From Eledone cirrhosa (Eukaryota), in assembly GCA_964016885.1 (NCBI GenBank), contig OZ024742.1, positions 214,830,001 through 214,894,000 of the forward strand: a stretch of 64,000 nt of DNA, written 5' to 3'. The notes under the pieces are model-generated. The model worked only from the letters and a program-made list of their open reading frames with translations, did not search any database and was not told where the DNA came from. Positions 1 through 36,627 of this stretch are shown piece after piece; within the stretch, counting starts at the first letter, position 1, and every line of letters starts with the position of its first letter. A program made the position numbers and the translations under genes.

Positions 1-1100
1 TGTGTGCATATGTGTGTATGTGTGTGAGTGTGTGTGAGTGTGTGAGTGTGTGTTTGCGCTTATGTTTAATATATATAGAGAGAAAGTGTGAAATAGACAG
101 ACAGAAATAAACAGATAGAAAGATTGAGAAAAAATCTGAACGTAGGATAAAGTGACGAGGATGAACAAAATGTAAGGAGAAGAGGAAAAGAAGTTATTCT
201 TACAGGGATTTGACTCTAACAATACAGCAATACATACATTTATTTTGATTCGAAAAATCAGAAAATTCTGAAGATTAGATATTGATATATCTTGAAGATC
301 CAACCATGAATACAAGGAAATAATCCACTCAGTGTCCTTATGCGTCTGTTTATTATTAACAAATCTTGTTTTTTTCTTCTTGCAAATAACATTTACCGAC
401 GAAACAAGATGATTTCTAAAGAGCCTTTTATAATCCTTTTTATGATTAAAAAAATATATATATATTTTTCTAAATAACTTTGAAATTTGCCTAGATGTAT
501 TTTTAATAACCCCTCTTCTAATGGTAACGTTCACTTCAATCGTAATTTCAATATCGTATTGATATCATTAGTTACATTGAGTTTGAAAGGGAAATAAAAT
601 AGAGGAACATTTTATCTGAGATGCTGATTCCCTTTTAGTTACTAAATTTTAATACACTCTTCATTTCTCTATTTTGTTTGGTTTTAAAATGTTCCTATTT
701 ATTTATTGCTATGTATATATTTATTTATTTCGTTGCAAGTGGATATGTTGTTATTTTCTTGAATAGACATTTTTTGGCTTTAAATGTTTCATTATTTGAA
801 AAGAGAAGGAAACATCTTAAAGTTTGTCCGATAATATAAATATATAAAAAAATAAAACGTGACATTTACAATACAAAAATATGTGCTAAATCAGAATATC
901 AAAACAAGTTACTAAATCACACAGTAAACAAGTTTAGAACTTTTACACGACAATCTATTAAAATTTAAACTTCCAGAAAAGTTATTTACGTTTCAAAAAC
1001 ATTTTCCGCATAAATATTCAGTTGATCAAAAATAAAATAAATGTGAGAGAGAGAGTGAGAGAGAAAGGGTGAGATAGATAGATAGTTAGATAGATAGATA

Positions 1101-4100
1101 ACTTTCTATTTATTTGCCACCAGGGCATCAAAGATTGGGACAAATACAAGGGAGGGGGGGGGTTACATACATTTCAAAGGACGTGTAACAACATATAACA
1201 AATAAAATTCAACAATCGAAGTCCTCAATAGGGAGGCGGCGTTGACGTGTGTCGCACACACCCCCGAAAAATATGTGCAACCCTCCTCCTCAGGAGCACA
1301 AAGAGCGGGTGCCCCCTTCCTCTCCTCTTTATTCTCCTCTCTCACCCACAGGCTGATATAGAGAGAAGGCCCATTCACTCGGGCCATTCTCACCACTTTC
1401 ACAAACCTTTCATAAAACTTGCTGGGGTAGAGCACCTCTCTCTCCATTCTGATCCTTCTTCTAAAATGGTACTTGAAAAAAAGGACCAGTTGTTGGCCGG
1501 AGAGAAAAGTGTCCAACCTCGACCACCAAACAACCTCTTTCGCCATAGCTATCACACAGAGGAAAACCGCCACTCCTTCGTTTTTGAAGGGGGGAGGCGG
1601 TTTGATTGTGACAATGTACTCGGTGGTCAACCTGATAGGTCTCACCAGCGACAGTAGCCGTTCCACATAGCCCCACAGGTCAGCAACGCCCGGGCAGTGT
1701 ACGAATGCGTGCGCGACGGTTTCCTCGTCACGCACGCATCTCGGACAGATCTTCTTCGATGGGTCACTAACCGGGCGCCCGTGTCTGTAGAGCTTGTCCC
1801 AAACGGGTAGAGCTCCTCGGTAGCACTGCCAAGCCAGGGACTTTTGGAAGTTGTCCATCGGTGGCGGGCTAATCGTGCTACCGAACAAACTGGCTAGCTC
1901 GTCTTCCTCTATGCCCAGAGACTCTCCGAGAGCGTTGTCGCAGTGGCTGCGCACCAACCCTCTATATGATGTTGAGGTTGAGTCTCCACTGATTGCCGGA
2001 TCCGTTTGCCAGAGGGCTGTGAGCGCCTAGGCACATTCAATGTGCCAGTCGCCGATTTTTCTCGATCTTTGCTTGAACCAGGATTGCAGCTCGGTGAGTG
2101 AGACGAGTCTCGGTAGGGTTCGCCTCACAAAAGGGGCCCACACCGGCTGACCGGTGAGGGATACTTGGCCATCCGTTTGAAGGGTGTTGACATTTTGGCG
2201 AGCGTTTTCGCTGGGGAAGGCACGACGGCCAATCGGTAGTAGGTGACGGACGCTATATAAGTGTTCGCCACGTCCGCTCGACCTTTCAGGGATAGTTTGC
2301 ACTCGTCCTACTTCTGGGCGAGTGCAAACACCCTTCCCGTTACCTCGTCACAGTTTTTCTCCACCTAGAGGTCCGGTCCGGACCAGACTCCGAGCAGCTT
2401 CACCGGTCCCTCCTTCCAGCGTCGGATGACGCCGTCGGAGGGCATCGGTTTGCCTCTCCACGTTCCGAGTTGCAAACCGACGGACTTGTCCCGCTTCAGC
2501 TTAGCTCCTGTAGACCTTTCGCATTCCTCCAGTAAGGTGCCGATCTGCTTGATTTCCGAGGCGCATGACGCCATTACTGTCTAGTCATCGGCGTAGGCCG
2601 ACACCGCTTTCTGCAATCCCAGTTCCAAGGGGATTCCTTGCAACAGCTCCAACTTCCGCAGTAGTGGCTCGAGAGCCAGCACATACAGAAGGGGGGAGAG
2701 AGGGCATCCCTGTCGGATGGATCGCGCGATTTCGAACGGCTCCGAGAGGTAGCCGTTCACCTTGACCCTCGAGCAAGAGTTGCTCCTGTGCATTGCAGCA
2801 ATCCACCCCCTGAAAACGAGTCTGAAACCTGCCGCCGCGAGCACTGCATCCAGGTACCGATGGTCAACCCTATCGAACGCCTCAGATTGATCCAAGTTGA
2901 TCAGGGACCCACCAAAGCCGGTTTCGTTCCCTACCCTCTTTACGGTGTATCACATGAGGTGGAGATTGTTGTGAATTGACCTGGACGGGATTGCGCATGT
3001 CTGGGCTTCTCCCACCAGGTTCCCGACGACAAGCTCCAACCGCTTCGCTAACACCTTAGCCAAAATCTTTAACTCTGTGTTTAGCAGAGTTATGGGCCTG
3101 AAGTTGTCTATGTCATCCCCCTTGTTCTCGTCCTTCCTCACCAGCGTGACTACGCCCTTGGTCACAGAACTGGGAATTCTGCCGTTCTGTTGCCAGTTTC
3201 AGCAGACCGCCTGGAGGAGTATGGAGAACAATCCCGAATCGCTACATAAAGTTCGTATGGTAGACCATCGAGACCTGGAGATTTGCGTTTGCCGCATTGG
3301 CTCAGCGCATCCCCTATCTCAGCGACTGAAATCGGCCTTTCGCAGGACTTCACCTCCCCGTCCGTGAGCCGGGGCAGACCGTCGAGGTATGGACCGAAAT
3401 CCATGGCCTCACCCGGCCCGCCGCCCCTCCCGAACAGTCGCTCAAAGCGCCGTTGAAAGGCCGCGCACATCCGTTCAGGTTCAAGGATCACGCGTCCATG
3501 CTGGTCCTTCAAAGACAAAATCATGGACTTGTTTTCACTTTTTGCCCCTGTTACTCGGGCCCAGCTAACAGCTTTGGCTCCCATGTTACCCATAGCACGT
3601 ATTTTACTCATGACAACGCAGCCCTCGTGCTTCGCCTCAAAGAACTGGTCTAAGGCCGTTCTTGACGCCAGCACGCCGGCCACGTTGCCACTCCTCATCG
3701 CCTCTTCTACTTTATCTATCAATTCCCTTTCAGTTCTATTCTTATCTGATGCTAAATCCTGAATAAAAATTATCGATTCTATTCTAATTTGTCTCTTGAG
3801 AGAGCCCCACCACCTGCTGTTGACTATTGCCCCCGTCAACCGCTGCTTAAATAGGGTGCTAATCCGCTTACTGTAAGCTTTGTTTGTCGGTAAGGACAAG
3901 TTTAGCTTCCAGTAACCGGGTCATTGTCTATGGGTGCTATCAAGGTGGACCACTCCGGTCACCAACTTGTGATCCGAATAGTCAACCATGAACATTCGTG
4001 GACAGCTTAATATGTCCCTATCCTTATTTCTAACTAGCAACCTATCTAGGTACGACCTAGATATTCCGCTGAAATTAGTCCACGTCCAGGGTAGCACAGT

Positions 4101-4660
4101 CGGAAAATCTAGTTGATATCTATCGGCCAGATCAAATCGGCCGATTAACCGTGTGAAGCTGTTACACCCCCCTCTATCGGGACATGCCCCTACATAGTCC
4201 CAACGTTTATCCAGGATACCATTCAAGTCCCCCACTAAAAGCAAGGAGCGAGACGTATCCAGAAAAGTCGCTAGGCGCTGCAAGAAGTCCGGTCGCGGTG
4301 TCCCAGATGGGGCATACGCTGTCACCAGCCTGAAGGCTCCACCTTCACTACTGCCGACGTCTAGAACCACCAGTTGGCCCCCGAGTCCAGGTGTACTTCC
4401 CGTGTTGCGAGGCCCAGATGTTTCCGCAGCAGAACGACCACCCCACCCTCACCCCCGGGTGACAGAAAGATGCATAGATCTCAAAGTCGTCGAAGATGGG
4501 GGCCAGTTGGTGCTCGTTGCTTATCCTGGACTCGCAAATAGCTATCACATTCATTCTGTGCGACCTGAGGTCAATTAAGAGTTTGCCCTGCTTCCAGGAC
4601 TTCCCCAGGCCGCGCACATTTAAACATCCAACTCTTATAACAGCCATGCTGGTTGTGAAG
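1101..4660 (-). mobile_element. Tx1-type (L1 clade) non-LTR retrotransposon copy A, 5'-truncated 13 nt upstream of the ORF2 ATG
   Basis: APE start MAVIRVGCLNVRGL, YSDHKLV, GYWKLN, RT motifs DQSEAFDRVDH, RQGCPLSP and YADD, and C-terminal CPRC..ET..H...C. The 3' end AATAAA abuts (TATC)n. Near-identical 21-nt flanks at 1080-1100 and 4661-4681. Confidence 0.93.
1347..4647 (-). pseudogene. Copy A ORF2 (APE endonuclease - reverse transcriptase - CCHC), frameshifted
   Basis: Split over track ORFs 4348-4647, 3921-4370, 3162-3899, 2950-3165, 2581-2895, 2365-2574 and 1163-1957. There is a stop directly after YADD, and the native stop TAG is changed to TGG. Confidence 0.9.
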
Positions 4661-4915
4661 AGATAGTTAGATATATAGATAGATAGATAAGTGTATATTT
4701 ATTTCCCACGAGGGCACAAAAGAAGGGGGAAAATACAAGGGGGGGGGGTTACATAAAGGGACGAATAAAAAACAAATAACAAACATAAAATTAACAATAC
4801 AGTCCTTAATAGGGAGGAGAAGTTTTGGGGGTTACACACACCCCCGAAAATGTGTGCAACCCTTTTCCTTAGGGGCACAGAGAGGGGGTTCTCCTTTGAA
4901 CTTCCACCTTTCCAT

Positions 4916-7900
4916 CTACAGGCTGATAAAGAGAGAAGGCCAACTCACCCGGGCCATACTCGCAACTTTCACCTACCTTTCATAAAACGTGCTGGAGTTG
5001 AGTACCTCTCTCTCCATCCTGATCCTTCTCTTAAATTGGTATTTAGAGAAAAGGACCAGTTGTTGGCCGGAGAGAAAGGTGTCCGACCTCAACCCTTTCA
5101 AACGTGTCCACCATACCACCTCTTTCACTATGGCTATTACACAGAGGAAGATTGCCTCTCCTTCATTTTTGAAGGGGGGAGGCTGCTCGATCGTTACAAT
5201 GTACTCGGTGGCCAACCGGATTGGTCCTACCCGTGACAGCAGTCGTTCGACATAGCCCCACAGATCGGCAACGCCCAAGCACTGTACCAATGCGTGCGCA
5301 ACGGTTTCCTCGTCGCGCACGCATCTGGGACAGATCTTTTTCGAGGGGTCTCTACGGGGGCCCGTGTCTGTAGAGCTTTTCTCGAACGGGAAGCACCCCT
5401 CGGTAGCACTGCCAGGCCAGGGACATCTGGAAGTTGTCCGTGGGTCCTGGGCCAAATGTACTCCCGAATAGGCTGGCCACTACGTCTTCTTCCATGCCTA
5501 GGTCTTCTCCGAGGGCGTCGTCGCATCTACTAACCACCAGCCCTCTATAGAATGACGAAGTGGAGTCTCCACCGATATCCGGGTCCGCTTGACAGAGAGC
5601 CGTGAGCGCCTGGGCACACTCGATGTGCCAGGCCCCCAGTTTTCTCAGTCTTTGCTTGACCCAGGACTGCAGCTCGGTGAGCGAGACGAGTCTCGGAAAG
5701 TCTCTCCTCACATACGGGCCCACACCGGTTGACCGGTGAGGAATACCTGAAGGTGTCGTGGCCTTAATACGTATTTACGCTTCAGCAGCCATGGCACACC
5801 CAGCCCTCCTTTCGAAGGGTGTTGACAGCAGATGGATACCCTCACCAAAGGAGCCCGCTTCTTCCAAAGGAATTGGAGGAGTGCACGCTCCATTTTGGTG
5901 AGCGTTTCCCTTGGGCAAGGCACGACGGTCAGGCGGTAATAGATGACGGACGCTATATAAGCGTTCGCCACCTCCGCCCGACCTTTCAGGGATAGTTTGC
6001 ACTCGGCCCACTTCTGCGTCAACGCAAACACCCTGTTCGATACCTCACCCCAGTTCTTCTCCACCTGGAGGTGTACCCGAACCAGACCTCGAGCAACTTC
6101 ACCGTGCCCTCCGTACAACGTCCGCCGACGCCGTTGCAGGCCATCGGTTTGCCCCTTCACTCGCCGAGTTGCAAACCGACTGACTTGTCCCGGTTCAGCT
6201 TAGCCCCTGTAAACTGTTCGTATTCCTCCAGTAAGGTGCCGATCACCGCGATTTCCGAGGCGGTTGACACCATTACTGTCACGTCATCGCCGTAGGCCGA
6301 CACCGCTTTCCGCAATCCCGGTTCCAAAGGGATGCTCTGTAACAACTCCAACTTCCGCAGCACTGGCTCTAGGGCCAATACATACAGAAGGGAGGAGAGA
6401 GGGCATCCCTGTTGGATGGACCGCGTGATTTCGAACGGCTCCGAGAGGTAGCCGTTCACCTTGACCCTAGAGCAGATGCGGCTGCTGTGCATAGCAGTGA
6501 TCCAGCCCCTGAAAACGGGTCCGAAACCTGCCGCCACTAGCACCGAATCCAGGTAACGATGGTCGACCCTATCGAACGCCTTAGATTGATCCAAGTTGAT
6601 CAGGGCCCAACCAACGCCGGGTTCGTTCCCAACCCTCTCTATGATGTATCGCATAAGGTTGAGGTTGTCGAGAATGGACTTGGACGGGATGGCGCAGGTC
6701 TGCGCATCTCCCACCAGGTTGCCCACGACAAGCGCCATCCTCTTTGCTAACACCTTGGCCAAAATCTTTAACTCTGAATTTTAACAGAGTTATGGGCCTG
6801 AAATTACTTATTTCATCCCCCTTGTTCTCGTCCTTCCTCACTAGCGAGACTACGCCCTTGGTCACAGAACAGGGGATTCTCCCGTTCTGTTGCCAGTTGC
6901 AATAGACCGCCTCGAGGGGATCGAAGAACAAGTCCGGCATACTTAAATACTTTTATTATTTAGACCATCGAGGCCCGGAGATTTGCGTCTGCCGCATTGT
7001 TTCTGCACGTCCCCTATTTCAGCAGCGGCGATCGGCCTCTCGCAGGACTTCGCCTCCTTGTCCGAAAGACGCGGCAGGCCGTCGAGTTATGGACCGAAGT
7101 CAACATCCCCATCCGGCCTCTCGCCCCTTCCGAACAATCGGGCAAAGTGCCTTTGAAAGGACTCGCACATCTGCTTACGTTCAAGGATCACCCATCCATC
7201 CTGGTCTCGCAAACACCGGATAGTGGATCTAATCCCACTTTTGGCTCCTGTCACATGGGCCCAGCTAACAGCTTTGGTCCCCTCGTTTCCCAGAACCCGT
7301 ATTTTGCTTCGGACAACGCAGCATTCGTGTTTCGCGTCGAAGATGTGGCCCAAGGGCGTTCTCGACGCTAGCACTCTGGCTACATCGACGCTTCTAATTG
7401 CCTCTTCTACACTATCTACCAACTCCCTGTCCTTCCTATTTCTATCTGTGGCTGACTCCTTACTAACTCCTATTGTAGGTACTCTAATCTCTCTTTTGAG
7501 AGAGCCTCACCGCCTGTTGTTGACGAGGCGCCCGTCAACCGCTCCTTAACTAAGGTACTAATCCGGTCCCTGTAAGCTTTACTTGCCGGTAAGGACAGGT
7601 TGAGCTTCCAGTAACCGGGTCCCTTTCTATGCGTTCTATCAAGGTTGACCATGGAGGTCACTAACTTCTGGTCTGAATAGCCAACCCTGAGCATTTCTGG
7701 ACAACGTAAACAGTCCCTATCCTTATTTCTAACTAAGAACCTATCTAGGTACGATCTAGATTAACCGTAGCGGTTTGTCCAAGTCCAGGATGGCACGGTC
7801 GGAAAATCTAGTCGATATCTATGGGCCAGGTCGAATCTGCCGATTATCCCCTTGAAAAGTCTCCAGACGATGGAAGAAGTCCGGCCGCGTTGACCCAAAA

Positions 7901-8203
7901 GGGCCGTAGACGGCGACCAGCCTAAAAGCTCCGCCTTCACCACTGCCAAGTTCCAGAACCACTAGTCGACCCTCCGGGTCGAAGTGTACCGTCTGTGTAC
8001 CGGCCCAGATGTTTTTGCAGCAGAACGACAAACACACCCCCACCTACGGGCTGACAGAGAGATGCGTGCATCTAAAAGTCATCAAAGGTGGGGGCCAGCT
8101 GTCGCACGCTGCATCGTGACCTGAGGTCATTTAGAAACAATTCTTGCTTCCAAGGTGAGCCCAGGCCACGCGCATTTAGACAACCTACTCTCAACACATC
8201 CAT
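4916..8203 (-). pseudogene. Copy B ORF2 (APE-RT-CCHC), frameshifted
   Basis: Fragments contain LINLDQSKAFDRVDH, QQGCPLS, YGDD and CPRCVRDEETVAH. Confidence 0.9.
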
Positions 8204-8227
8204 GTTAGTGGTAAAGAGAAAAGGCAC

Positions 8228-10090
8228 CTACCCCCTGCGTCCATTTTCATGGGGGTGGGGGATGGGTTGTTGTGTGGTGTGGTGGTTTGTGGAAGTGTAG
8301 GGTTGGAGTGTTTGGAGTTGTGTAGGTGCCTGGGGGGGGGGGGGATTTTTTAGGAGGACAGGCTTAATGGGTCTGACGCAGGGGGTCGCCACGTCCTCTT
8401 TAAAAGTGTCTTTTAACGTTCTGCAAATGTCCATTGGTGCTTTTATCATTTTAAGATGGGGAAGCCACGTTGCTTGTGCGAAATTCGAATATTCGTTTTT
8501 TTTTATTAAGTTGTTATTATAAATAACGTTTAACAGTTTTTTGTTTATAGTGTTTATGTAAGTGTATGCATATTTTTGTTTTTGTGTGATGTTTTTTGTT
8601 TGCTGTTGTTGTGTTTTTTTTTGTATTGATGTCTGTGTTATGTATTGTGGAGGGGTTATTTGTATTTGTGTTCCTGTGGTGTGTTTTCTTTTTTTCTTTT
8701 AACTTTATGAAAGTGTGCCCCGCCCCTCGTCTGACGACGAAAGGGGGTCGTCTTCCGTATTCGAGGGTACATTTACGGCTCGTGTTTGTGGTGTGAGTGT
8801 TATTGAATTTGTTTTCTGTGTGTGTGGGGTGGGGGATGGGATGAGGGGATTGTTTTCAGTTGTGTTTTAACTTGTGGTGTTAGTTGTTTTTGTGGTGGTG
8901 GTGGTGGTGGTGGTGGAGGTTGTGTTGGTAGTGTTATAGTTGTTGGTGTGGGCAAAATCGGTGTTTTTTGTTTGCTTGGGAACAGGCATCCTTCAGGTGA
9001 CCTCTGTCACCACAGAGGTAACAAGCGTGTTGTCTACCCTCCACTGTGATGTCTAAGTAGGCAACCCCATCCAGCAATATGCGGTCGGAGATCCTAGCAA
9101 TTCGTTCTGGCTGCATTTGCACCAGAACTTGCAGGTTAGTTCCACCGAACACGTTGCTGGAAGACTTACCTACCAAAATTACTGCATCCTCTTTCAAGTC
9201 GAAGAGGCCAAACAGTACCGCCCAGAAATCAATATCTGGATCGATACTATGTATGGTCAATCTTTGCGTTTTTCTTCCCAAATAAGTGAGAAAGAAGGTA
9301 AATAAGGGGGACACAATTGGGGCCAGGGAATGTTTTTCGGCCGTCAATTTATCTACCGTAGAGTCTATCCTTCCGAATGAATACAATGTTTTTCAGATGA
9401 TCTTTTAAAGCCAGTTCAATCTCTGTCTGTGTGAGTTGTACTGGCTTACGGGTTTTGTTGGATATTGTCTATAAATAATAGTTTTTAAGCTATTTTCCTT
9501 TTTTTTTAGCTCTGGGGGAGAATTTAAAGAAAATAGACCATTCTCCTCCAAAGTTATATACTTCCGTGCATTTTCCATTTGCTGGGCCATGTTCAAAATG
9601 TTAATAGATTCATACACAAAGGTTTTTTTGGTAGCGAACGTCACTCTGTTCGCCCCCTCTTTGTTTACATTTGTCGAAATGTGGTTGTTTTCTTGCTTTT
9701 GTTGTTACAATTTTCATTTTTTGTTGTGTTTGTGTTATTTATGTTGGTGTATGCGTTCACATTTTTTTCCCCATTGGGGTTAGACTCCATTTTTTCAAAA
9801 TGTTCACTTATATTTTCAGTATCCGAGAGACTTGTAGTCACAGTTACTACTTCTCTATCACCTTTGCTGGTGGGCGTGGCACCGTGAAAAGTCGAAACCG
9901 CATCCATTAATGTTGGCAATTTCTCCGAGTCAATTTGTTTCACATTTTCTTCATTAGGGTTAGGCTCCATTATTTCAATGTTTCTAATAATCATTATTCT
10001 TTCAGTAGAGAGGCTTGTTAACTCCGGTACCCGATCTCCTTCAGTTTGTTTAGTGGGCGTGTCATCGTTACCTGTGGTAATGGCTTCCAT
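8228..10090 (-). pseudogene. Copy B ORF1 (gag-like, zinc knuckle), frameshifted
   Basis: CYLCGDRGHLKDAC (CX2CX4HX4C) in ORF 8934-9386, followed by a Thr/Pro/Gln-rich region. Collinear with ORF1 of copies C and D. Confidence 0.85.
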
Positions 10091-10320
10091 TAATACTAGC
10101 GTAGAGACAATCACAAGATTTTTAGGATGAAAAATTTCACCCCAAAAGTGGTGAAATAAATTAAACCTGATGTCCGAAGTCCCAGGCAAGGGGGTTACTT
10201 AACACAATAACGCAAGAATACAGACAAACACTTACTGTTAACACGTAATATATCCAATACTCGCGGAGCCGATGTGAAGAACGTCTATACCATCCGGAGA
10301 TAGATAGATAGATAGATAGA

Positions 10321-13300
10321 TTTCTTTATTTCCCATAAGGGCGCACAGGAAAAGGGGACAATACAAAGACACATGCCGGGGATTTTACATACAGTCGTGT
10401 AATAATATAAAACAAACAATTATAACAATCGAAATCACCAATAGGGGGGAGGCGCCACAAATGGGTTGTTTAATACCCTGTCGATAGGATAAAACCCTCA
10501 ACTTCAGGAGCGTGTTGTGCAAGTGCTCCCTTCTTCCGTTTGCTCTCTTCTTTAACCTACAGGCTTATAAACAGAGAAGGCCCAATCACTCGGGCCTTTT
10601 TCGCTTAATTCACCCACCTTTTAGTAAATTTACTGAAGTGCAGTGCCTCTCTCTCCACTCTGTTTCTCCTTCTAAAGTGATACTTAAAGAAGGGAATCAA
10701 TTGTTGATTGGAGAGAAAGGCATCTATCCTCAGTCATCTCAATCTAGTCCACCATATAACTTATTTCACTGTAGTCACTGTACAGAGGAAAACCGCCTCT
10801 CTTTCGTTTTTGAAAGAGGCTGGCGGTTTGATCCTTACTATGGACTCGGCAGTCCACTTGATTTGTCCCATACGAGACAGCAGTTGTTCTGCATAGTTAC
10901 ACAGGTCAGTTACGCCCGGGAAGTGTACGATTGAGTGCAGGACGGTTTCAATGTCCTGCGCGCATCTTGGACACGTCCTCTTGGAAGGATCCCTGTCGGG
11001 GTGTCCGTGCCTGTAGATCTTGTCATGAACTAGTAGAGCTCCTCGGAGGCACTGCCGGGCCAGGGACCTCTGGAAGTTGTCCATAGGTCACGGGCGGAAA
11101 GTCCTACAAAACTGACTGGTGAGCTCATCTTCTTCCATGCCCAGAGTCACTCCGAGCACGTCGTCGCCCTTGAAACGTACATTCCCTCTATAGAATGCCG
11201 AATTGGAGTCTCCACTGATTGCTGTGCCCGCTTGCCAGAGGACTGTGAGCGCCTGAGCGCATTCAATGTGCCAGGCACCCATCGTTTTCGGTCTTTTCTT
11301 CACCCAGGACTGCAGCTCCGTCAACGAGACGAGCTGCGGGAAAGCCTGTCTCACAAACGGTGCCCACGCCGGTTGGGGGCCGGTGAGGAATACCAGGAGA
11401 TGCCGCAGCCTCAGCGCATGTTTGCGCATCTTCAGCTACGGCATTCCTAGCCCTCCGTTGGAAGGGTGCTGACAGCAGACGGATCTCCTCACCAGCAGAG
11501 CCTGCTTCTTCCACAGAAACAGGAAGAGCATGCGTTCCATCTTGGCGAGGTGTTGAGGGGGACAAGGCACGACAGTCAAGCGGTAGTAGATGTCGGACGC
11601 TATGAAAATGTTCGCCACCTCCGCTCGACCTTTCAAGGACAGTTTGCACTCTGCCCACTACTGGGTGAGCGCAAACACCTTGGCCGTGACCCCGTTCCAG
11701 TTTTTCTCCCCCTGGTGGTCTGGTCTGAACCCGACCCCGAGCAATTTCACCTTTCCAGCGTCCTACAACGCTGTCGGACGTCATCGGTTTGCCTCTCCTC
11801 GTACCGAGTTGCAAACCGACAGACTTGTTCGGATTTAGTTTTGTTCCCGTCAGTGTTTCGTATTCTTTTAGTAAGTGGCCGATCACCCCGATTTCTGTTT
11901 GCTCGACACCATTACCGCTGCCGCCGCTTTGCGCAGTCCCGGTTCTAGAGGGATGCCATGTAACAGCTCCAATTTCCGCAGTAGTGGCTCTAGAGTCAAT
12001 ACATACAGCACGGAACGCGAGCAGATTCTGGTGTGCATCGCCTCGATCCAGCCTCTGAAAACGGGACCGAAACTGGCCGCCTTGGGAACCGCTTCCAAGT
12101 ATCGATGGTCGACCATATCGAATGCCTTAGGCTGATCCAAATTGATCAGAGGCCCACCGAAGCCGGGTTTACTACGCAACCTCTATATGACGTATCTCAT
12201 GAGGTGGAGGTTGTCGTGTATGGACCTGGTTGGGATTGCGCTTTCCCTACCAGGTTATAGACGACAACCGCCAACCTCGTTGATAGCACCTTGGCCAAAA
12301 TCTTTAACTCTGTGTTGAGAAAAGTTATGGGTCTGAAGTTGATCAGCGTTACTACGCCATTGCTTGCACGACTGGGAATTGTCCCGTTCTGCTGTCAATT
12401 GCAGTAGACGGCTTCGAGGACGCCAGAGAACAAGTGCGGTATGCCTATGTAAAACTCATAGGGTAGACCATCTAGGCCGGGTGACTTGCGTTTCCCGCAG
12501 CGGCCCAGAGCGTCCCGTTCGGCTCACCGTCGTTCTGCTCAAAAAGTCGCGCAAAGTGCTGCTGGAAGGCCGCGCACATTTGCTTGGGGTCAAGTAGCAC
12601 GCACCCGTTTTGGTGTTTCAAAGACCCAGTCGTGGACTTGTTGTCACTTCTTGCCTCCGCCACTCGCGCCCAGCTGACAGCTTTCGCTCCTTCGTTTCCT
12701 AGAGCACGTGTTTCGCTTCTGACCACACAGCCTCCTCTACCTTGGCTATTTGTTCTCTTTCTATTTTGTTTTTTTCTCTAAGGCTAACTCTCTGCTAAAC
12801 CCTATCGATTCTACTCTAATTGCTTCTTGAAAGAGTGCCACAATCTATTGTTGACGATGGCTCCCATTAACTGGTGCTTTACTAGTCCACTTCTCCGTTC
12901 ACTGTAAGCTTTACGTGCCGGCAACGACACGTTCAGCTTCCAGTATCCGGGTCCTTTACTATGTGTTCTATCACGGTTGACTATGCAGACGACTAATTTG
13001 TGATCTAAATAGGCAACCATGTGCATTCGTGAACAGCTTAACATCTCCTTGTCCCTCTCTCTAATGAAGAACATATCTAAATACGATCTAGATGTCCCGC
13101 TGCAGTTTGCCCACGTCCACTGCGGTGCAGTCGGGAAATCCAGTCGATACCTATCGGCCAGTTGGAAATGGCCGATTAAAATGTTGAGGCTGTTGCACCC
13201 CCTTCTACTGGGACATGCTCCCACATAGTCCCATCGTGCATCTAGTATTCATTCCAGTCCCCCACTAAAAGTAAGGAGCGAGACGTTCCCAGAAAAGTCT

Positions 13301-15252
13301 CTAGACGCTGAAAGAAGTCTGGCCGTGATTGGGATTGCCCGGTCGGGGCATAAACGGCAACCAGTCTGAAGGCTACACCTCAAATACTGTTCACGTTTAG
13401 GACTACCAGTCTACCCTCCCGAAGTGTACTTGCTGTAATTCGACGTCCAGGTTCTTCCGAAACATGACAGCCACTCGCCCTCCACCTCCTGGCTGACAGA
13501 GAGATGCATATATCTCAAAAGTCTTCGAAGATAGGGGTTAGTTGCTGCCTGTTGTGGATCCTGGACTCAATGATGGCTATCACATCCATACCATGTGACC
13601 TAACGTGGTTTAATAGTTGGCCCTGTTTCCAGGGCATCCCTAGGCCACGCACATTCACGCTTCCAACTCCTAAAATAGCCGTGTTGGTGAAGAAGAATTG
13701 GGGAAACAGGACGAAAAGGTGCATTTACCTTTTCGTTTCCTGGAGATCGGGTTGTTCAATCTCCATTTGGGTGCTGGAGAGGGAAAATATTTTAACAGGA
13801 CGCAGTTGATTTGGTTCAGGCCGGGGTTGTCCACGTCCTGCAAACATTTATTTTCCAGGTCACTATAGGTCTCCATAGAAACCCTTATATTTTTAAGGTG
13901 TGGAGACGATTCTGCTTTGACGAAAGTTTTGCCCTCCGTCTCCACCTTGGGGTTTTGGGAGATGGCCTCCATCAAACTCTTGTTGTTTGTGTTGATATAT
14001 GTGTATTGCTGTTTGTGTTTTTGTTGTGTTGTGTTAGGTTGTTGTTCGTCCGGGTGTTTTCTTTTTATGGTGGGTGCTTGTGTTTGGGGTGGTGTTGTTC
14101 TTGTTGGTAGGGGGAGGTTTGACTGTGGTGTTTTTTGTGTTGTTGTTTGTGTTGTTGTGTGTGTGTGTGGTTGTGTGTTGGTGTTGGTGATTGGAGTTTT
14201 GGGGGTTGTGTGGTGTCTCTTTTTGTCTTTTAGATTTCCGAGGCTCTCCTTCTTCTTCACTTGAAGAAGGAGAATCAGCCTCATCTGTTAATGAATAATC
14301 ATCGTCAAGAGTTCGGGGTAGGGGTATGTTGTGTGGTCGTGGTGTTTCGGTGTGTGCGTTTGTGGTAGTGTTTGAAGGAGTGGGATGGGGTGGGGCTGTG
14401 TTCGTCAGGGGTGTTGTCTGTGTTGGTTGAGTGGCTGTTTGTTTTAGTGTGTTTGTTCCATTCGTTTGTTGTTTTACTTGTGGCGGTGGTTCTTTTGGGT
14501 TTGGTGTTGGTAGTGTTTTTTAAATGACGTTGCTGTGGTGTGTTTGTGAAGGACAGGAGGCCTTTACGTGTGTTGTTCTACCACAGTGAAAACAATGAGG
14601 TCTACGCCCCTCCACCGAAATGTTTCATTTGTTGTTGTCGTCGACGATGACTTTTTCGGGTATTTTGGAGATTTTCTCCGGCCTCATCTGCATAAGAATC
14701 TCCAAATCAGTACCCGCCCACCTTTGTCTAATAGACTTCCGTATCGGAAGAATAGCATCAGTCTCTGGATCCACGAAGCCAGCCAAGATCGACCAGATAT
14801 TAATCTTTGGTGGTATATTTTTATTTTTTATGTTTTGTGTCCTTTTTCCCATGTACGCAGGGAAAAAGGTGAATGCTTTTGACACCATTGATGTCACAGG
14901 ATGGTTTTGGGCCAGTGTCCCATTTTTAAACAGTACGGAAATACTTCCGTAATGTCTTCCTCGTTGAAGAAAGTCAATATTTTCTAGACTCCTTCAAAGT
15001 GGCTTCTATGTCTCCTTGACTCACAATTACTGGCTTTTTCGTTGTGTTTGAGACAGTGCTGAAGGTCACTGTTCTTCAAACCGTCTCTTCTTTTATTTCG
15101 AGGAGTGAGTTGATTCTAAACTCACCCTTGTCTTCGAAAGTTACAAATGTTCTCCCTTGCTGGAGCATATCCCATGCATAGGAGATGTCAAGATTTATAA
15201 AATCTTGTTTTTTGTTCTATGTTTCAGCGAAAGACATGTTTTGTGGTGTTGC

Positions 15253-15286
<34 letters not shown>

Positions 15287-15484
15287 ATCGTCAGCCTCGG
15301 TGTTAGACATCGCAATTTCTTGACGAGGTGTAATTTTATCTGTAGATGTATCTATGGAGTTGTTGTTGTTGGCTTTTTCATATGTATGTATATCAATAGG
15401 TATAATTCCTCTGTTTTCCGGTGTATGTTGTGTGTTATTTTTCTCCGATTCGACGGTAGAAATTTTAAAATGTTCAATTGGCAA
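10321..15484 (-). mobile_element. Tx1-type retrotransposon copy C, 5'-truncated within ORF1, several internal deletions
   Basis: 3' end AATAAAGAAA followed by (TCTA)n at 10299-10320. ORF2 remnant 10557-13682 with ATG changed to ACG. ORF1 remnant 13725-15484. Closely similar to copy D. Confidence 0.92.
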
Positions 15485-15485
15485 T

Positions 15486-16810
15486 CAGTCAGATATAGAA
15501 GATTCTTTCAAGGAGATTCTAGAAAATGTCGATTTTCTCCAGCGAGTAAAACAGTACGGAAGTGTTTCCGTACTGTTTAAAAGCGAGGCACTGGCCCAAA
15601 AAAACTCTGTGACACCAATAGTGTCAAAAGCATACACCTTTTTCCCTACATACATGGGGAAAAGGACACAAAAAGTAAAAATAAAAAACATACCTCCAAG
15701 CATTAACATCTGGTGGATCTTGGCTGGCTTCGTAGAGCCAGAAACAGACATAATACTTTCGATACGAAAATTCATTCGACAAAGGTGGGCGGGCACCGAT
15801 TTGGAGATTCTGTTGCAAATGAAACCGGAGAGAATCTCCAAAATACCCGAAAGAGTCGTTATTGATAATAACAACAAAATAAACATTTCGGTAGAAGGAA
15901 GAAAATTTCATTGCTTTCGCTGTGGTAGCACATCTCACCTAAAAGCCTCTTGTCCACAAACACACAACAGCAACATCATAAAAAAACGCTATTACCAACA
16001 CCAACACCAAAACAACCACCACCACCACCACAAGTACAACGACAGACGAAACGAGCAACCACACCAAAACAAACAGACACTCAACCAACAACAACAGAAA
16101 AAACAGAAACAACACCCCTGAAGAACACATCCCCACTCCATCCCACTCCATCAAACACTACCACAAACACACATACCGAAACACCACCACCACCACACAA
16201 CATACCCTTACCCCACACACCTGACGATGATTATTCATCGACGGATGAATCTGCTTCTCCTTCTTTAAGTGAAGAAGAGGGAGAACCGCGGAAATTCAAA
16301 AAACAAAAAAAGAGACACCACAAAACCCCCAAAACTTCAATCACCAACACACAACAACAGACACAAACAACAACACAAACAACACCACAGTCAAACATCC
16401 CCTTATCAGCAAAACCAGCACCAACACCACCCCAAACACAAGCACCCACCATAAAAAGAAAACTCCCGGATGAACAACAAACTAAAACAATACAACAAAA
16501 ACACAAACAACAATACGCATACATCAACACAAACAACAAGAGTTTGATGGAGGTCATCTCCGAAAACCCCAAGGTGGAGACGGAGGGCAAAACTTTCGTC
16601 AAGGCAGAATCGTCTCCACACCTTAAACTTATAAGGGTTTCTATGGAAACCTATAAAGACATGAACATTAAATTTTCACAGGACATGGGCAACCCCTGCC
16701 ACAAACCCATCAACCGCGTCCTGTTGAAAGGTTTCCCCACCCCACCCAACACCCCATCCAGCACCCAAATGGAGATTGAACAACCCGATCTCCAGGAAAC
16801 GAAAAGGTAA
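15486..16810 (+). pseudogene. Copy D ORF1, N-terminally truncated, one frameshift
   Basis: Zinc knuckle CFRCGSTSHLKASC at 15912-15953. Continues in ORF 15950-16810 (Pro/Thr/Gln-rich). Confidence 0.85.
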
Positions 16811-16851
16811 GTGCACCTTTCGTCCTTTTTCTTCAACTTTTCTTCACCAAC

Positions 16852-19800
16852 ATGGCTGGTTTACGAGTTGGAACCTTGAATGTGCGTGGCCTAGGGATGT
16901 CCTGGAAACAGGGCCAACTTTTAAACGACCTTAGGTCACACAGTATGGATGTGATAGCCATCACCGAGTCCAGAATCCACAACAGGCAGCAACTAACCCC
17001 CATCTTCGACGACTTTGAGATCTACGCATCTCTCTGTCAGCCAGGAGGTGGAGGTGGAGTGGCTGTTATGTTTCGGAAGAACCTGGACGTCGGAGTACAG
17101 CAAGTACACTTGGACCCGGAGGGTAGACTGGTAGTCCTAGACGTGAACAGTATCGGAGGTGGCCGTCTATGCCCCGACCGGGCAATCGCAATCACGGCCA
17201 GACTTCTTTAAGCGTCTAGAGTCTTTTCTGGGAACGTCTCGCTCCTTACTTTTAGTGGGGGACTGGAATGGTATCCTTGATGCACGATGGGACTATGTGG
17301 GAGCATGTCCCAGTAGAGCGGGGTGCAACAGCCTCAAAACTTTAATCGGCCAATTCCAACTGGCCGATAGGTATAGACTGGATTTCCCGACTGCACCACA
17401 GTGGACGTGGGTAAACCGCAGTGGGACATCTAGATCGTATTTAGATAGGTTCTTCATTAGAGAAAGGGACAAGGATATGTTAAGCTGTCCACGAATGCAC
17501 ATGGTTGCCTATTCAGATCACAAGTTAGTCGTCTGCTTAGTCAACCGTGATAGAACACATAGGCAGGGTCCCGGATACTGGAAGCTGAACGTGTCGTTGC
17601 CGGCACGTAAAGCTTACAGTGAACGGATAAGTAGACTAGTCAAGCAACAGTTAACGGGAGCCATCGTCAACAATAGATGGTGGTACTCTCTCAAGAAAGC
17701 AATTAGAATAGAATTGATAGGGTATAGCAGAGAGTTAGCCTTAGAGAAAAACAGAATAGAAAGAGAACTAGTAGCCAAGGTAGAGGAGGCACTTAGAAGT
17801 GATAACGCGGCTAGAGTGTTAGCGTCGAGAACGGCACTGGACCAGTTCTTCGATGCGAAACACGAAGGCTGCGTGGTCAGAAGCAAAACACGTGCTCTAA
17901 GAAACGAAGGAGCGAAAGCTGTCAGCTGGGCCCGAGTGGCGGAGGCAAAAAGTGGCAACAAGTCCACGATTCGGTCTTTGAAAGACCAAAACGGACGCGT
18001 GCTACTTGACCCCAAGCAAATGTGCGCGGCCTTTCAGCGGCACTTTGCGCGACTGTTTGAGCAGAACGACGGTGAGCCGAACGGGGCAATGGACTTTAGT
18101 TCATACCTCGACGGCCTGCCGCGTCTCTCGAACACGGACGCCGAGTTCTGCGAAAGACCGATCACGGACACTGAGATACGGGATGCTCTGGGCCGCTGCG
18201 GGAAACGCAAGTCACCCGGTCTAGATGGTCTACCCTACGAATTTTACATAGGCATGCCGGACTTGTTCTCTAGCGTCCTCGAAGCCGTCTACTGCAATTG
18301 GCAGCAGAACGGGAGAATTCACAGTTCTGCAGGCAAGGGCGTAGTAACCCTGATCACAAAAGACGAGAACAAGTGGGACGAAATTAACAACTTCAGGCCC
18401 ATAACTCTGCTCAACACAGAGTTAAAGATTTTGGCCAAGGTGCTAGCGACGAGGTTGGCGCTTGTCGTCGAGAACCTGGTAGGGAAAGCGCAAACGTGTG
18501 CAATCCCGACCAAGTCCATACACGACAACCTCCACCTCATGCGATACATCATAGAGAGGGTGGGTAGTAAACCCGGCTTCGGTGGGGCTCTGATCAACTT
18601 GAATCAGTCTAAGGCATTCGATAGGGTCGACCATCGATACTTGGAAGCGGTTCTCAAGGCGGCCGGTTTCGGCCCCGTGTTCAGAGGATGGATCGAGGCG
18701 ATGCACACCAGCATCTGCTCGAGGGTCAAGGTGAACGGCTACCTATCGGAGCCGTTCGCAATCACTCGTTCCATTCGACAGGGATGCCCTCTCTCCTCCA
18801 TTCTGTCTGTATTGACTCTAGAGCCACTACTCCGGAAATTGGAGCTGTTGCAGGGCATCCCCCTAGAACCGGGACTGCGCAAAGCGGCGTCGGCTTATGC
18901 CCACGACGTGACAGTAATGGTGTCGAGCACATCGGAAATCGAGGTGATCGGCAACATACTGAAAGAATACGAAACGCTGACGGGAGCAAAACTAAACCCA
19001 GACAAGTCTGTCGGTTTGCAACTCGGTACGTGGAGAGGCAAACCGATGACATCCGACAGCGTCGTTGGAAACTGGACGGACGGACCGGTGAAATTGCTCG
19101 GGGTCTGGTTCGGTCCAGACCTTCAGGTGGAGATAAACTGGAACGAGGTCACGGCCAAGGTGTTTGCACTGACTCAGAAGTGGGCAGAGTGCAAACTGTC
19201 CTTGAAAGGTCGTGCGGAGGTGGCGAACACTTTCATAGCGTCCGTCATCTACTACCGCTTGACTGTCGTGCCTTGTCCCCGTGAACACCTCGCCAAGATG
19301 GAACGCATGCTCTTCCAGTTTCTGTGGAAGAAGCAGGCTCCGCTGGTGAGGAGATCCGTCTGCTGTCAGCACCCATCCAACGGAGGGCTGGGAATGCCGT
19401 GGCTGATTATGCGCAAACATGCGCTAAGGCTGCGGCATCTCCAGGTATTCCTCACCGACCCGCAACCGGTGTGGGCACCGTTTGTGAGACAGGCTTTCCC
19501 ACAGCTCGTCTCGCTAACGGAGCTGCAGTCCTGGGTGAAGAAAAGACCGAAAACGATGGGCGCCTGGCACATTGAATGCGCTCAGGCGCTCACAGTCCTC
19601 TGGCAAGCGGGCGCAGCAATCAGTGGAGACTCCACTTCGACATTCTATAGAGGGATTGTACGTTACAAGGGTGACGACGTGCTCGGAGAGACTCTGGGCG
19701 TCGAAGACGATGAGCTCACCAGTATGTTTGGTAGGACTTTCCGCCCGGGACCTATGGACAACTTCCAGAGGTCCCTGGCCTGGCAGTGCTACCGAGGAGC

Positions 19801-20281
19801 TCTACCGGTTCGTGACAAGATCTACAGGCACGGACGCCCTGGCAGGGATCCTTCCAAGAGGACGTGTCCAAGATGTGCGCAGGACATTGAAACAGTTCTG
19901 CACGCAATTGTACACTGCCCGGGCGTAAGCGACCTGTGGAACTATGCAGAACAACTGCTGTCGCGTATGGGACAAATACAGTTGACTTCCGAGTCCATAG
20001 TAGGGATCAAACCGCCAGACTCTTTCAAAAACGAAAGAGAGGCGGTTTTCCTCTGTACGGTGGCTATGGTGAAAGAAGTTATATGGTGGACGAGGTTGAG
20101 AGGACTGAGGACAGATGCCTTTCTCTCCGGACAACAATTGATTCCCTTCTTTAAGTATCACTTTAGAAGGAGAATCAGGGTGGAGAGAGAGGCACTGCAC
20201 CCCAGTAAATTTACTGAAAGGTGGGTGAATGAAGCGAAAATGGCCCGAGTGATTGGGCCTTCTCTGTTTATAAGCCTGTAG
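16852..20281 (+). pseudogene. Copy D ORF2 (APE-RT-CCHC): one frameshift at 17160, then 1040 open codons
   Basis: MAGLRVGTLNVRGL, GDWN, SYLDRFF, YSDHK, KSPGLDGLP, FRPITLLN, RQGCPLS and CPRC..ET..H...C. The catalytic motifs read LNQSKAFD and YAHD. Confidence 0.95.
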
Positions 20282-20544
20282 GTTGAGGAAGAGAGCAAAA
20301 GGAAGAAAGGAGCACTTGCACAACACGCTCCTCGAGTAGAGGGTTGTTCTATCGACGGGGTATTAAACAACCCATTTGTGGCGCCTCCCCCCTATTGGGG
20401 ATTTCGATTGTTGAAATTGTTTGTTTGTTTTTATATTTTTTTTACACGACTGTATGTAAAATCCCCGGCATGTCTTTGTATTGTCCTCTTTCTTGTTGCG
20501 CCCTTGTGGCTAATAAAGAAATCAATATTTTTTTTTCTTTGTTG

Positions 20545-22662
20545 ACAGTAGTGGCTCGAGAGTCAATACATAGAGAAGGGAGGAGAGACGGCACCCTTGT
20601 CGAATGGACCGCGCGCTTTCGAACGGCTCCGAGAGGAAGACGTTCCCTGACGCTAGAGCAGATGCGGCTGCTGTGCAGAGCAGTGATCCAGCCCATGAAA
20701 ACGGGTCCGAAGCCTGCCGCCGCTAGCACTGCATCCAGGGATCCATGGTCGACCCTATCGAACGCCTTAGATTGATACAAGTTGATCAGGGCCCAACCAA
20801 CGCCGGGTTCGTTTCCAACCCTCTCTATGATGTATCGCATGAGGTGGATGTTGTCGTGGATGAACCAGGACGGGATAGCACATGTCTGCGCATCTCCCAC
20901 CAGGTTGCCCACGACAAGCGCCAACCTCTTTGTTAACACGTTGGCCAAAATCTGTAACTCTGTATTTAGCAGAGTTATGGGCCTGAAGTTACTTATGTCG
21001 TCCCCCTTCTTCTCGTCCTTCCTCACTATCGTGACTACGCCCTTTGTCACAGAACAGGGAATTCTCCCGTTCTGTTGCCAGTTGCAGTAGACCGCCTCGA
21101 GGAGATCGGGAAACAAGTCCGGCATAGCTAGATATAGTTCGTATGGAAGACCATCGTGACCCGGGGATTTGCGTTTGCCGCATGGACTCAGCACGTCCTC
21201 TATTTCAGCGGCTGAAATCGGCTCCTCGCGGGACTTCGCCTCCTCGTCCGAAAGACGCGACAGGCCGTCGAGGTATGGACCGAAGTCCACTTCCCCAACC
21301 GGCTCCCCGCCTTTTCCGAACAATCGGGCAAAGTGCCTTTGAAAGGCCTCACGCATCTGCTTAGATTCAAGGATTGCCCGTCCATCCTGGTCTCGCAAAG
21401 ACCGGATGGTGGATTTAATTCAACTCTAGGCTTCCGTCACGTGGGCCCAGCACACAGCTTTGGTCCCCTTATTCCCTAGAGCACGTATTTTACTTCGGAC
21501 AACGCAGCATTCGTGCTTCGCGTCGAAAAACTGGCTCAAAGCCGTTTTCGACGCTAGCACTCTAATTGGCCACGTCGCCGCTTCTAATTGACTCTCTTCT
21601 ATCTACTCTATCTATCAGCTCCCTTTCCTTCCTATTCCTATCCGCAGCTAAAACCTTACTAAATTCTATCGAGACTAATCTAATTTCTCTCTTTAGCGAT
21701 ACCCACCACCTGCTGTTGACGATCGCTCCAGTCAACCGCTCCTTAACTAACGTACTAATCCGGTCCCTGTAAGCTTTACTTGCCGGTAAGGTCATGTTCA
21801 GCTTCCAGTAACCGGGATCCTCTCTATGCGTTCTATCAATGTTGACCATACAGGTCACTAACTTGTGGTCTGAATAGCCAACCATGAGCATTTCTGGACA
21901 ACTTAAAATGTCCCTGTCCTTATTTCGAACTAAGAACCTATCTAGGTACGATCTAGATTGACCGCTGCGGTTTTTCCAAGACCAGGTTGGCACAGTCGGA
22001 AAATCTAGTCGAAATCCATCGACCAGGTCAAATCGGCCGAGTAACCCCTTGAGGCTGTTATACCCCTCTCTATCGGGACATGCCCCTGCATAGTCCCATC
22101 GTGCATCCAAGATACCATTCCAGTTCCCCACTAAAAGCAGGGAACGGGACGTCCCAAGAAAAGACTCCAGACGTTGGAAGAAGTTGGCCCCTCTGTCTCA
22201 AAAGGGGCATATGCGGCTACCAGCCTAAAGGCTCCACCTTCACCACTGCCAAGGTCCAGCACCACCAGTCGACCACATGGGTCCAAGTGAACTATCTGAG
22301 TGGCGAGACCCAGATGTTTTTGCAGCAGAACGACAGCCCCACCCCCACCTCCGGGATGACAGAGAGATGCGTGCATCTCACATTCATCAAAGGAGGGGGC
22401 CTGCTGTCACAAGCTGCTGATCCTAGCCTGGCAGATAACCATCACATTTATGGATCGTGACCTGAGGTCATTTAGAAGCATTGCTTTCTACCAATGTGAG
22501 CCCATGCCACGCGCATTTAGACACCCTACTCTCAACACAGCCAGGTTGGTGGTAAGGAGAAAAGGCACTTAGCTCTCTGCGTCCCGGGGAGTGGCCGCTC
22601 AATTTCCATGGTCGTAGGGGATGGGTTGTTGTGTGGGGTGGTGGTTTGTTCAATAGGTGGTT
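20545..22662 (-). mobile_element. Tx1-type retrotransposon copy E, truncated at both ends (end of ORF1, APE, first half of RT)
   Basis: ORFs 21562-22131 (YSDHKLV, GYWKLN) and 20442-21398 (KSPGHDGLP, FRPITLLN, SKAFDRVDH). It breaks off mid-RT against the 3' end of copy D. Confidence 0.9.
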
Positions 22663-24102: not shown

Positions 24103-24168
24103 CTTCTTCTTCTTCTTCTTCTTCTTCTTCTTCTTCTTCTTCTTCTTCTTCTTCTTCTTCTTCTTCTT

Positions 24169-24197
<29 letters not shown>
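24103..24197. repeat. (CTT)n microsatellite
   Basis: Perfect trinucleotide run. Confidence 0.98.
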
Positions 24198-24199
<2 letters not shown>

Positions 24200-26640: not shown

Positions 26641-26904
26641 ATCGTATTTTTCTGTCATTACTCAAGATTAATGGCCATAGGTAAGGGTTGGCATAAAGTA
26701 CCGAATTAAAGATAGTGAGTTTGGATTTTACACCTACCCGCCTTCTTCCGATTACCGAATGTTGAAACTGGTGTATTACTGCCGCAGCTCCTGCAATTCT
26801 TGCACTTAATTTAACCTACTGCCTTCCGTTAGAGTTGCTAGTGATAAACAGTCAAATAATCTATCTATCGATTTATTTCCCCTTTCTATCTCTCTCTCTC
26901 TCTT

Positions 26905-27060
<156 letters not shown>

Positions 27061-36240: not shown

Positions 36241-36627
36241 GAAAAATATTTTATTTAGAGAGGGGGGGGTGGAAAGGATGAAAAGGGGGAGGAGATGAGA
36301 GGGAGAGATGGGTGATAGAGAGAAAGAGATAGTTTTTATAACTGAGAGGAGATATATTGTTTTACATAGAGAGGTTGAAAACCGTTGGAAGATAATGTAT
36401 AAATTAAAAGAATTTGAAAATTAACGAGGAAAAAATATTTTATTTAGGGAGGGGGGGGATGAAAAAAGGGGGAGGAGATGAGAGTGAAGGTGAAGAGGGA
36501 CAGATGGGTGATAGAGAGAAAGAGATAGTTTTTATAACTGAGAAAAAGATATATTGTTTTACATAGAGGGGTTGAGAACCGTTGGAAGATAATGTATAAA
36601 TTAAAGGAATTTGAAAATTAACGAAGG
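36241..36627. repeat. Tandem duplication of a ~190-bp purine-rich unit
   Basis: 36241-36429 and 36430-36627 share long identical blocks, such as GGGTGATAGAGAGAAAGAGATAGTTTTTATAACTGAGA. Confidence 0.9.

Follow-up and report, generated by a model that had tools for sequence, protein, structure and literature searches.

A window of 64,000 nucleotides from the cephalopod Eledone cirrhosa (assembly GCA_964016885.1, contig OZ024742.1, positions 214,830,001 to 214,894,000 of the forward strand) holds several copies of one long interspersed nuclear element (LINE) family, here named A to E (Table 1), and we compared these with further copies from the whole genome. Copies A, B and C lie one behind the other on the minus strand, separated by tracts that read (TATC)n on the strand of the element and were found as (AGAT)n on the plus strand by Tandem Repeats Finder. 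On the element strand copy A ends in GGCAAATAAATAGAAAGT(TATC)n, copy B in GGGAAATAAATATACACT(TATC)n and copy C in GGGAAATAAAGAA(ATCT)6, the common pattern being AATAAA followed by 3-8 nt and the repeat; poly(A) is absent from these three junctions. The homology of copy A stops at about 4660 in contact with the tail of B, and copy B starts directly on the tail of C with the canonical 5' end of its subfamily, which is seen directly after the tails of other copies at two further loci (L002, L077); its 5' part (8290-10297) is collinear with the open reading frame (ORF) 1 region of copy D in a tblastx comparison. Both the 3' pattern of the three copies, without poly(A), and the position of the 5' ends of A and B directly on a GATA tract had been described in the original prediction, which was made from the letters of this stretch, and both are borne out by the junctions. 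The stack of A, B and C drawn there is also real, but copy C stops at about 15480, where copy D lies, and not at 15484.

Table 1. Copies of the LINE family, their tails and a separate microsatellite in the window. Repeat units and ends are given on the element strand for the copies and their tails.
Feature	Position	Strand	Remarks
Copy A, 3' tail	1072..1100	-	(TATC)7 including one TAAC unit; CT-rich flank beyond
Copy A, A-type subfamily	1101..4660	-	truncated at the 5' end, to about 3.6 kb from about 5.7 kb; end AATAAATAGAAAGT; 5' end adjoins the tail of B
Copy B, 3' tail	4661..4689	-	imperfect (TATC)7; landing site of A
Copy B, B-type subfamily	4690..10297	-	full length, about 5.6 kb; canonical 5' end; end AATAAATATACACT; ORFs broken
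Copy C, 3' tail	10298..10321	-	perfect (ATCT)6; landing site of B
Copy C, D-like subfamily	10322..15480	-	about 370 bp missing at the 5' end; end AATAAAGAA
Copy D, young ATCAAT-tailed sublineage	15483..20523	+	about 0.8 kb missing at the 5' end; end AATAAAGAAATC then AATATTTTT; no TATC tail
Copy E, family fragment	20543..22650	-	without 3' part; 5' flank not a GATA repeat
(ATCT)50 microsatellite	26859..27059	+	no recognisable family copy adjoining; orphan tail or virgin target

Self-BLAST identities are 79-81% between A and B, 71-73% between A and C and 73% between B and C, and the three are therefore diverged copies and not the result of a recent duplication. Over the last 300 bp their closest genomic relatives are 95% (A), 91% (B) and 93-94% (C) identical; these values do not fix the order in which the three were inserted.

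With the last 300 bp of A, of B and of D as queries, the 3.0-Gb genome yielded 2,495, 2,956 and 1,104 candidates at first look, respectively. For each query 40 were scored and 30 fetched, and the samples used here are best-scoring or first-listed matches, not a census. Two or more perfect TATC units come after the element body in 26/30 A-type, 25/30 B-type and 17/30 D-type copies (68/90 in total), the remaining 13 D-type 3' ends being ATCAAT. Tails range from 2 to more than 20 units; very often they run into another copy of the family, and otherwise into a related compound repeat or unique DNA. The repeat is also carried to sites outside the tracts: the off-target D-type copy at L156 has a target site duplication (TSD), ATCTTAAGAACC, after one extra ATCT unit, the copy at L008 ends in 2.5 TATC units and then A12, and full-length copies at non-repeat sites have 2-3 TATC units ahead of the canonical 5' end (L082, L163). 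The repeat is both target and element-borne tail, of which off-target copies keep 1-3 units. The original prediction had put an element-encoded tail forward as the alternative to a target; the repeat is indeed element-borne, but this does not exclude its being the target, as the 5' flanks carry TATC too.

The cleanest case for the 5' flank is given by the 5'-truncated copies, at which a repeat cannot be element-borne. The 5' tallies come from junctions read by eye; an automatic boundary script mis-called several loci, as the D-type reference sequence begins inside the repeat and one chain broke in L002. One locus was left out as indeterminate (L009/L095) and one with an internal deletion (L204), and L255-L258 were taken as one event. 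Among 12 truncated A-type copies the 5' flank was strict sense TATC in 5, degenerate or decayed in 2 and without the repeat in 5, and the same three classes held 12, 0 and 2 of the 14 truncated TATC-tailed D-type copies and 3, 2 and 3 of the 8 truncated B-type copies, which makes 20 strict, 4 degenerate or decayed and 10 without among all 34. Full-length copies begin directly after (TATC)n in 16/17 A-type cases and in 24/25 TATC-tailed D-type cases (5'-anchored sample); in 14 of these 25 the 5' tract is the tail of another copy, and in the rest unique DNA lies past the tract.

Chance does not explain these flanks. In the control, 20 arbitrary 10-kb stretches amounting to 200 kb of genome, just 0.29% of the positions, taken strand by strand, had (TATC)2 within 40 nt upstream; the control held 7 tracts with three or more TATC units, which made up 0.1% of its bases. 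The tracts are also oriented, with about 45 sense against 1 antisense in 167 kb, and neighbouring family matches of at least 150 bp were on the same strand in 26/26 cases, so the family keeps a fixed orientation towards its target repeat. According to the published definition a LINE is taken as target-specific when more than 20% of its flanks are alike, as far as that account goes (PMC4494074), and here the proportions are 20/34 for truncated copies (24/34 with degenerate tracts) and 16/17 and 24/25 for the full-length A- and D-type copies. A dispersed-target pattern, in which the repeat is found only at the 3' side and the 5' flanks are unrelated, does not describe the family, most 5' flanks of which carry the repeat. 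The original prediction was to be given up if most 5' flanks were non-GATA; with 20-24 of 34 truncated copies on TATC this is not what was found.

Single loci point directly to a tract that was present before the insertion. At L157 the duplication on either side of a 344-bp copy takes in the end of a TATC tract together with CTCGGA, the bases with which the downstream A-type copy begins. Identical variant repeat units stand on either side of the copy at L151, L142/L165 and L145, and at L108 a copy of only about 20 bp lies between two TATC tracts. When distinct (TATC)6 tracts were taken in order along contig 1, 9 of 11 adjoined a family copy as its tail, its 5' flank or both, and the family hence both uses and makes most of the (TATC)n tracts sampled. 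The family inserts preferentially into (TATC)n, mostly into the tails of earlier copies and in one orientation, which results in head-to-tail stacks. The picture drawn from the window in the original prediction, of a family that stacks head to tail in (GATA)n with each insertion regenerating the tract, is thus the genome-wide pattern. As a separate observation, at the 5' junction of L215 the 22 nt between (TATC)7 and a truncated B-type copy are the reverse complement of the first bases of that copy, a small inverted duplication that is reminiscent of twin priming.

Copy D is a member of a sister lineage with another target. It and 12/29 of the best genomic matches to its 3' end terminate in AATAAAGAAATC followed by AATAT, without a TATC tail; one of these reads GATATC. 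Of the 13 ATCAAT ends in the identity-ranked sample, 12 run on into AATAT and one is a variant. Exact 3' ends of the two kinds occur genome-wide 155 times (GAAATCAAT) versus 1,899 times (GAAATCTAT). The tail of the sublineage has changed from ATCTAT to ATCAAT, and its copies end GAAATC|AATAT. In the position-ordered sample the sequence after ATC was AATAT in 24/29, AATAA in 3/29 and a normal TATC tail in 2/29. Directly after ATC, TSDs that start with AATAT were found in the identity-ranked sample at 9/11 visible junctions (6-16 bp), in the position-ordered one at 7/11 independent junctions (9-16 bp), and also at L082 (19 bp) and L087 (16 bp), and in several cases the match of the TSD to the element end reaches upstream into C, TC or ATC. 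Among the copies sampled, no ATCAAT-type copy with an AATAT TSD lay within a TATC tract, and a same-orientation copy just downstream was seen for 1 of about 38 ATCAAT-type copies versus 2/2 ATCAAT copies with TATC tails.

The two sublineages are 98-99% identical. The only fixed differences between them are the tail base (16/16 ATCAAT-type versus 0/42 TATC-type) and a base in the 5' untranslated region (5'-UTR), shared by 4/4 ATCAAT-type and 1/28 other copies; three more markers are shared by 7/12 versus 0-1 of 34-39. Because of the shared 5'-UTR base and the three further markers, the ATCAAT copies are a real lineage and not accidents. In the region of the apurinic/apyrimidinic-type endonuclease (APE) no position was found with a base-frequency difference of at least 0.4 between the sublineages (5 ATCAAT-type versus 29 TATC-type copies). 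Several ATCAAT-type copies (L139, L148/L163 and L230-L233, on contig 1 at about 35.25 and 36.18 Mb) lie in tandem satellites with a unit that contains CAATATTA, and the sister lineage has in these satellites a repeated target of its own. Single insertions that were later duplicated account for four identical junctions at C1:430.29 Mb and for six spaced about 34 kb apart on C4.

The target of either sublineage is identical to what comes after GAA(ATC) in that sublineage's copies, and the proteins of the two are indistinguishable. It seems probable to us that in this stacking, (TATC)n-tailed LINE family the endonuclease does not set the target alone, and that base-pairing of the 3' end of the RNA with the nicked DNA strand does so; such guidance is favoured over recognition by the endonuclease because the targets differ and no APE position separates the sublineages. 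Every unambiguous TSD starts after a T on the top strand. In the mechanism that we propose, the RNA would be cleaved and polyadenylated 10-30 nt past AAUAAA and would end in a few UAUC units or, for the ATCAAT sublineage, in AUCAAUAU. The APE, taken to be permissive, would nick the bottom strand at a T/A step, and only a 3'-OH end with about 5-8 nt complementary to the RNA tail would prime reverse transcription. On the (GATA)n strand the pairing could take place in any register, which would give tails of variable length and restore the tract to either side of the insertion. Every new copy would then be a fresh target, so that stacks would build up. As the new 3' flank would be transcribed into the next RNA, a new specificity would be inherited. 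Whether the insertion site is programmed by a few nucleotides at the RNA 3' end and not by protein, so that a single T-to-A substitution in the tail shifted a lineage, its ORF2 being the same, heritably from (TATC)n to AATAT(T), is in our judgement evenly balanced. If true, an L1-like retrotransposon would here have been retargeted in nature, heritably and under the guidance of its RNA.

The original prediction had instead assigned the choice of target to the endonuclease: the APE of the family would itself recognise and nick (GATA)n, and the tail repeat would be the regenerated target. We consider this unlikely as the whole explanation, and somewhat easier to accept if the enzyme is a co-determinant. 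The presence of TATC on both flanks, the strict orientation and the more than 100-fold enrichment over background all agree with it, and in APE-type LINEs with specific sites the target is thought, in the parts of the literature available to us, to be set mainly by the endonuclease (PMC4494074, PMC3812793). However, the ATCAAT sublineage has its insertions at AATAT and none in TATC tracts, although its APE region has no position that separates it from its sister, and recognition of (GATA)n by the APE is not supported as it was stated. Furthermore, in both sublineages off-target TSDs begin with bases that match the tail of the copy in question (ATCT at L156, AATAT in others), as priming by complementarity predicts.

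Several points weigh against targeting of pre-existing tracts through the RNA tail, or limit it. The only direct hint on the RNA 3' end is one copy, that at L008, where the 2.5 TATC units before A12 may reflect the end of the transcript. The two targets would also fit one endonuclease able to accept GAT/A as well as ATT/A contexts, with the enzyme as a co-determinant, and the APE comparison covers only 5 ATCAAT-type copies. The 2-3 TATC units that some full-length copies have at their own 5' end (L082, L163) inflate the 5'-flank statistic of the full-length class. Among the truncated copies 10/34 are without TATC at the 5' side, most of them without a clear TSD, and what we describe is a preference and not an absolute rule. 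The earlier presence of the tract is moreover read from the junctions as they stand, and is to that extent presumptive.

The view that the repeat is solely an element-encoded tail, as in CR1, L2 or RTE elements, with random insertion and with stacks made in a single event by reverse transcriptase (RT) jumping between RNAs, is very improbable and already largely refuted. LINE reverse transcriptases are known to jump between templates, and the view has on its side the 1-3 tail units kept by off-target copies (L156, L008) and the 2-3 TATC units at the 5' end of full-length copies (L082, L163). Against it, solo copies with unique DNA past both TATC tracts make up about 12/25 of the D-type and 9/17 of the A-type cases, truncated copies stand on TATC in 20-24/34, and the TSD at L157 takes in bases of the neighbouring copy. 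Stacked partners are also unequally diverged, with a 99% copy behind an 81% copy at L164 and with values of 95%, 91% and 93-94% for A, B and C, and the ATCAAT copies do not stack although their proteins are the same. That the array of A, B and C arose by local tandem or segmental duplication or by unequal crossing-over is more improbable still, for although some family copies do lie in duplicated blocks (the four junctions at C1:430.29 Mb and the six at about 34-kb spacing on C4), the three belong to three subfamilies with 71-81% identity and differing truncation points and pre-tail sequences, share no flanking duplications or identical breakpoints and repeat a head-to-tail pattern seen at dozens of unrelated loci, all in line with the independent insertions that were originally suggested.

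The D-type genomic copies are about 5.9 kb long, with ORFs of 596 aa (ORF1) and 1148 aa (ORF2). An open ORF2 has the Pfam domains Exo_endo_phos (8-229), RVT_1 (514-757) and zf-RVT (980-1035) and no other Pfam match. The best solved relative of the ORF2 of copy D, which is open only from residue ~105 (17147-20281), is human L1 ORF2p, to which it aligns from residue 114 (E = 1.8e-45), the R2 proteins giving 2.7e-19 or weaker. ORF1 has one CCHC knuckle and no Pfam match at E<=0.01, Transposase_22 included, and the only named relative in the protein search was a hypothetical protein of Argonauta hians. The features that define the L1 group (L1 and Tx1 clades) are all present, namely an APE at the N-terminus, an RT, a zinc-binding region rich in Cys at the C-terminus and the absence of RNase H, while those of the mammalian-type L1 clade, an ORF1 with Transposase_22 and a poly(A) tail, are replaced by a CCHC ORF1 and (TATC)n tails. 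By its domain set and its match to L1 ORF2p the family is thus a LINE of the L1 group, L1/Tx1-like, the Tx1 label of the original prediction being a candidate one. Repeat annotations of octopuses, a circumstantial pointer to the Tx1 clade, list 'L1-Tx1' elements as abundant and recently active, according to the accounts at hand (PMC13282606, PMC8967140). ORF2 is open in 7/29 of the sampled D-type copies and both ORFs in 2/29, and the nearest-neighbour identity of D-type copies is 98.5-99.5%, which suggests recent or ongoing activity. There are more subfamilies than the three of the window: additional 5' ends directly after TATC tails (CAGACGTGTGTAACTTCGCGG... and CTGCCTGACGCGTGGAACATCG...) were seen in the 3' flanks of L071, L086, L204 and L209, and all begin with a GACGTG-like motif right after the repeat. 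At L095, which is L009 extended, positions 1-2000 hold the ACC/AAC-rich low-complexity stretch of ORF1 of an A-type copy, expanded to more than 2 kb with a period of about 33/66 bp, and this tandem array masks the 5' end of the copy.

LINEs that target microsatellites are already known. In the Tx1 clade the accounts consulted describe Kibi (TC) and Koshi (TTC), both from teleosts, and crocodilian Tx1 elements (TTCC/TTTC) (PMC4494074, PMC3812793). Like the present family, these are APE-type LINEs found in a microsatellite with the repeat flanking the copy on both sides (PMC4494074, PMC3812793). The target here is instead TATC/GATA and the host a cephalopod, the comparison being one of published descriptions, and those descriptions, in the parts available to us, mention no heavy stacking on earlier tails and no sister lineage retargeted to AATAT. 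Other microsatellite-specific retrotransposons without long terminal repeats (non-LTR) are reported in the same partial accounts, such as Waldo (ACAY) and Mino (AC) of the R1 clade, Dong (TAA) of the R4 clade and the NeSL-related Togen (TG) (PMC3812793, PMC4640811). These share the microsatellite specificity but, as described there, belong to other clades, some with a restriction-like endonuclease instead of APE, and use other target repeats. How such LINEs choose their repeat is called 'not well understood' in one of these accounts (PMC3812793).

In mechanism the family may resemble human L1, an L1-group APE-RT element for which the 'snap-velcro' accounts at hand describe priming at T-tracts where the nicked DNA pairs with the 3' tail of the RNA (PMC3649969, PMC4014453); TSDs of about 10-19 bp are a further likeness. 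In contrast to human L1, the tail here is (UAUC)n or AUCAAUAU and not poly(A), and the sites are a rare microsatellite or a word of 5-7 nt and not ubiquitous T-tracts; with a tail that matches a rare repeat, a weak preference would therefore become near site-specificity. LINEs of the RTE, CR1 and L2 types also have a short tandem repeat and no poly(A) at the 3' end, and for RTE the tail repeat has been proposed to be linked to the first TSD bases, as far as the source at hand goes (PMC6007223). A repeat at the 5' flank is not reported for these types, whereas it is present here, and zf-RVT and the match to L1 ORF2p point to the L1 group. No GATA/TATC-specific LINE was found in the open-access literature, a scope outside which Repbase and Dfam lie. 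New against the accounts available to us are thus the target unit TATC/GATA, the cephalopod host and the retargeted sister lineage.

Two sublineages that are 98-99% identical and have targets matching their own RNA 3' ends provide a natural experiment on the roles of enzyme and RNA. The family stands behind most of the (TATC)n tracts sampled (9/11) and so shapes the microsatellite landscape of the genome. Its nested head-to-tail arrays confuse repeat annotation, and GATA-type microsatellite markers in such genomes would have flanks common to many loci.

In the remaining part of the window, the truncated 5' ends of copies C and D face each other at 15480-15483, with almost no spacer between them. 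For copy D a TSD of at best 5 bp (TCAAT) could be proposed and was not relied upon. A filler of about 20 bp (AATATTTTTTTTTCTTTGTTGA) lies between the 3' end of D and copy E (20523-20546). Truncation at the 3' side is unusual for LINE copies, and as E is without its whole 3' part, a deletion or rearrangement must have gone with one of these insertions. The bases just upstream of the (ATCT)50 microsatellite (CAAATAATCTATC) are similar to the last bases of the element, and this tract may be an orphan tail. The window also holds a perfect (CTT)32 array (24103-24198) and a 197-bp unit present twice with 88% identity (36242-36624), both unrelated to the LINE family.

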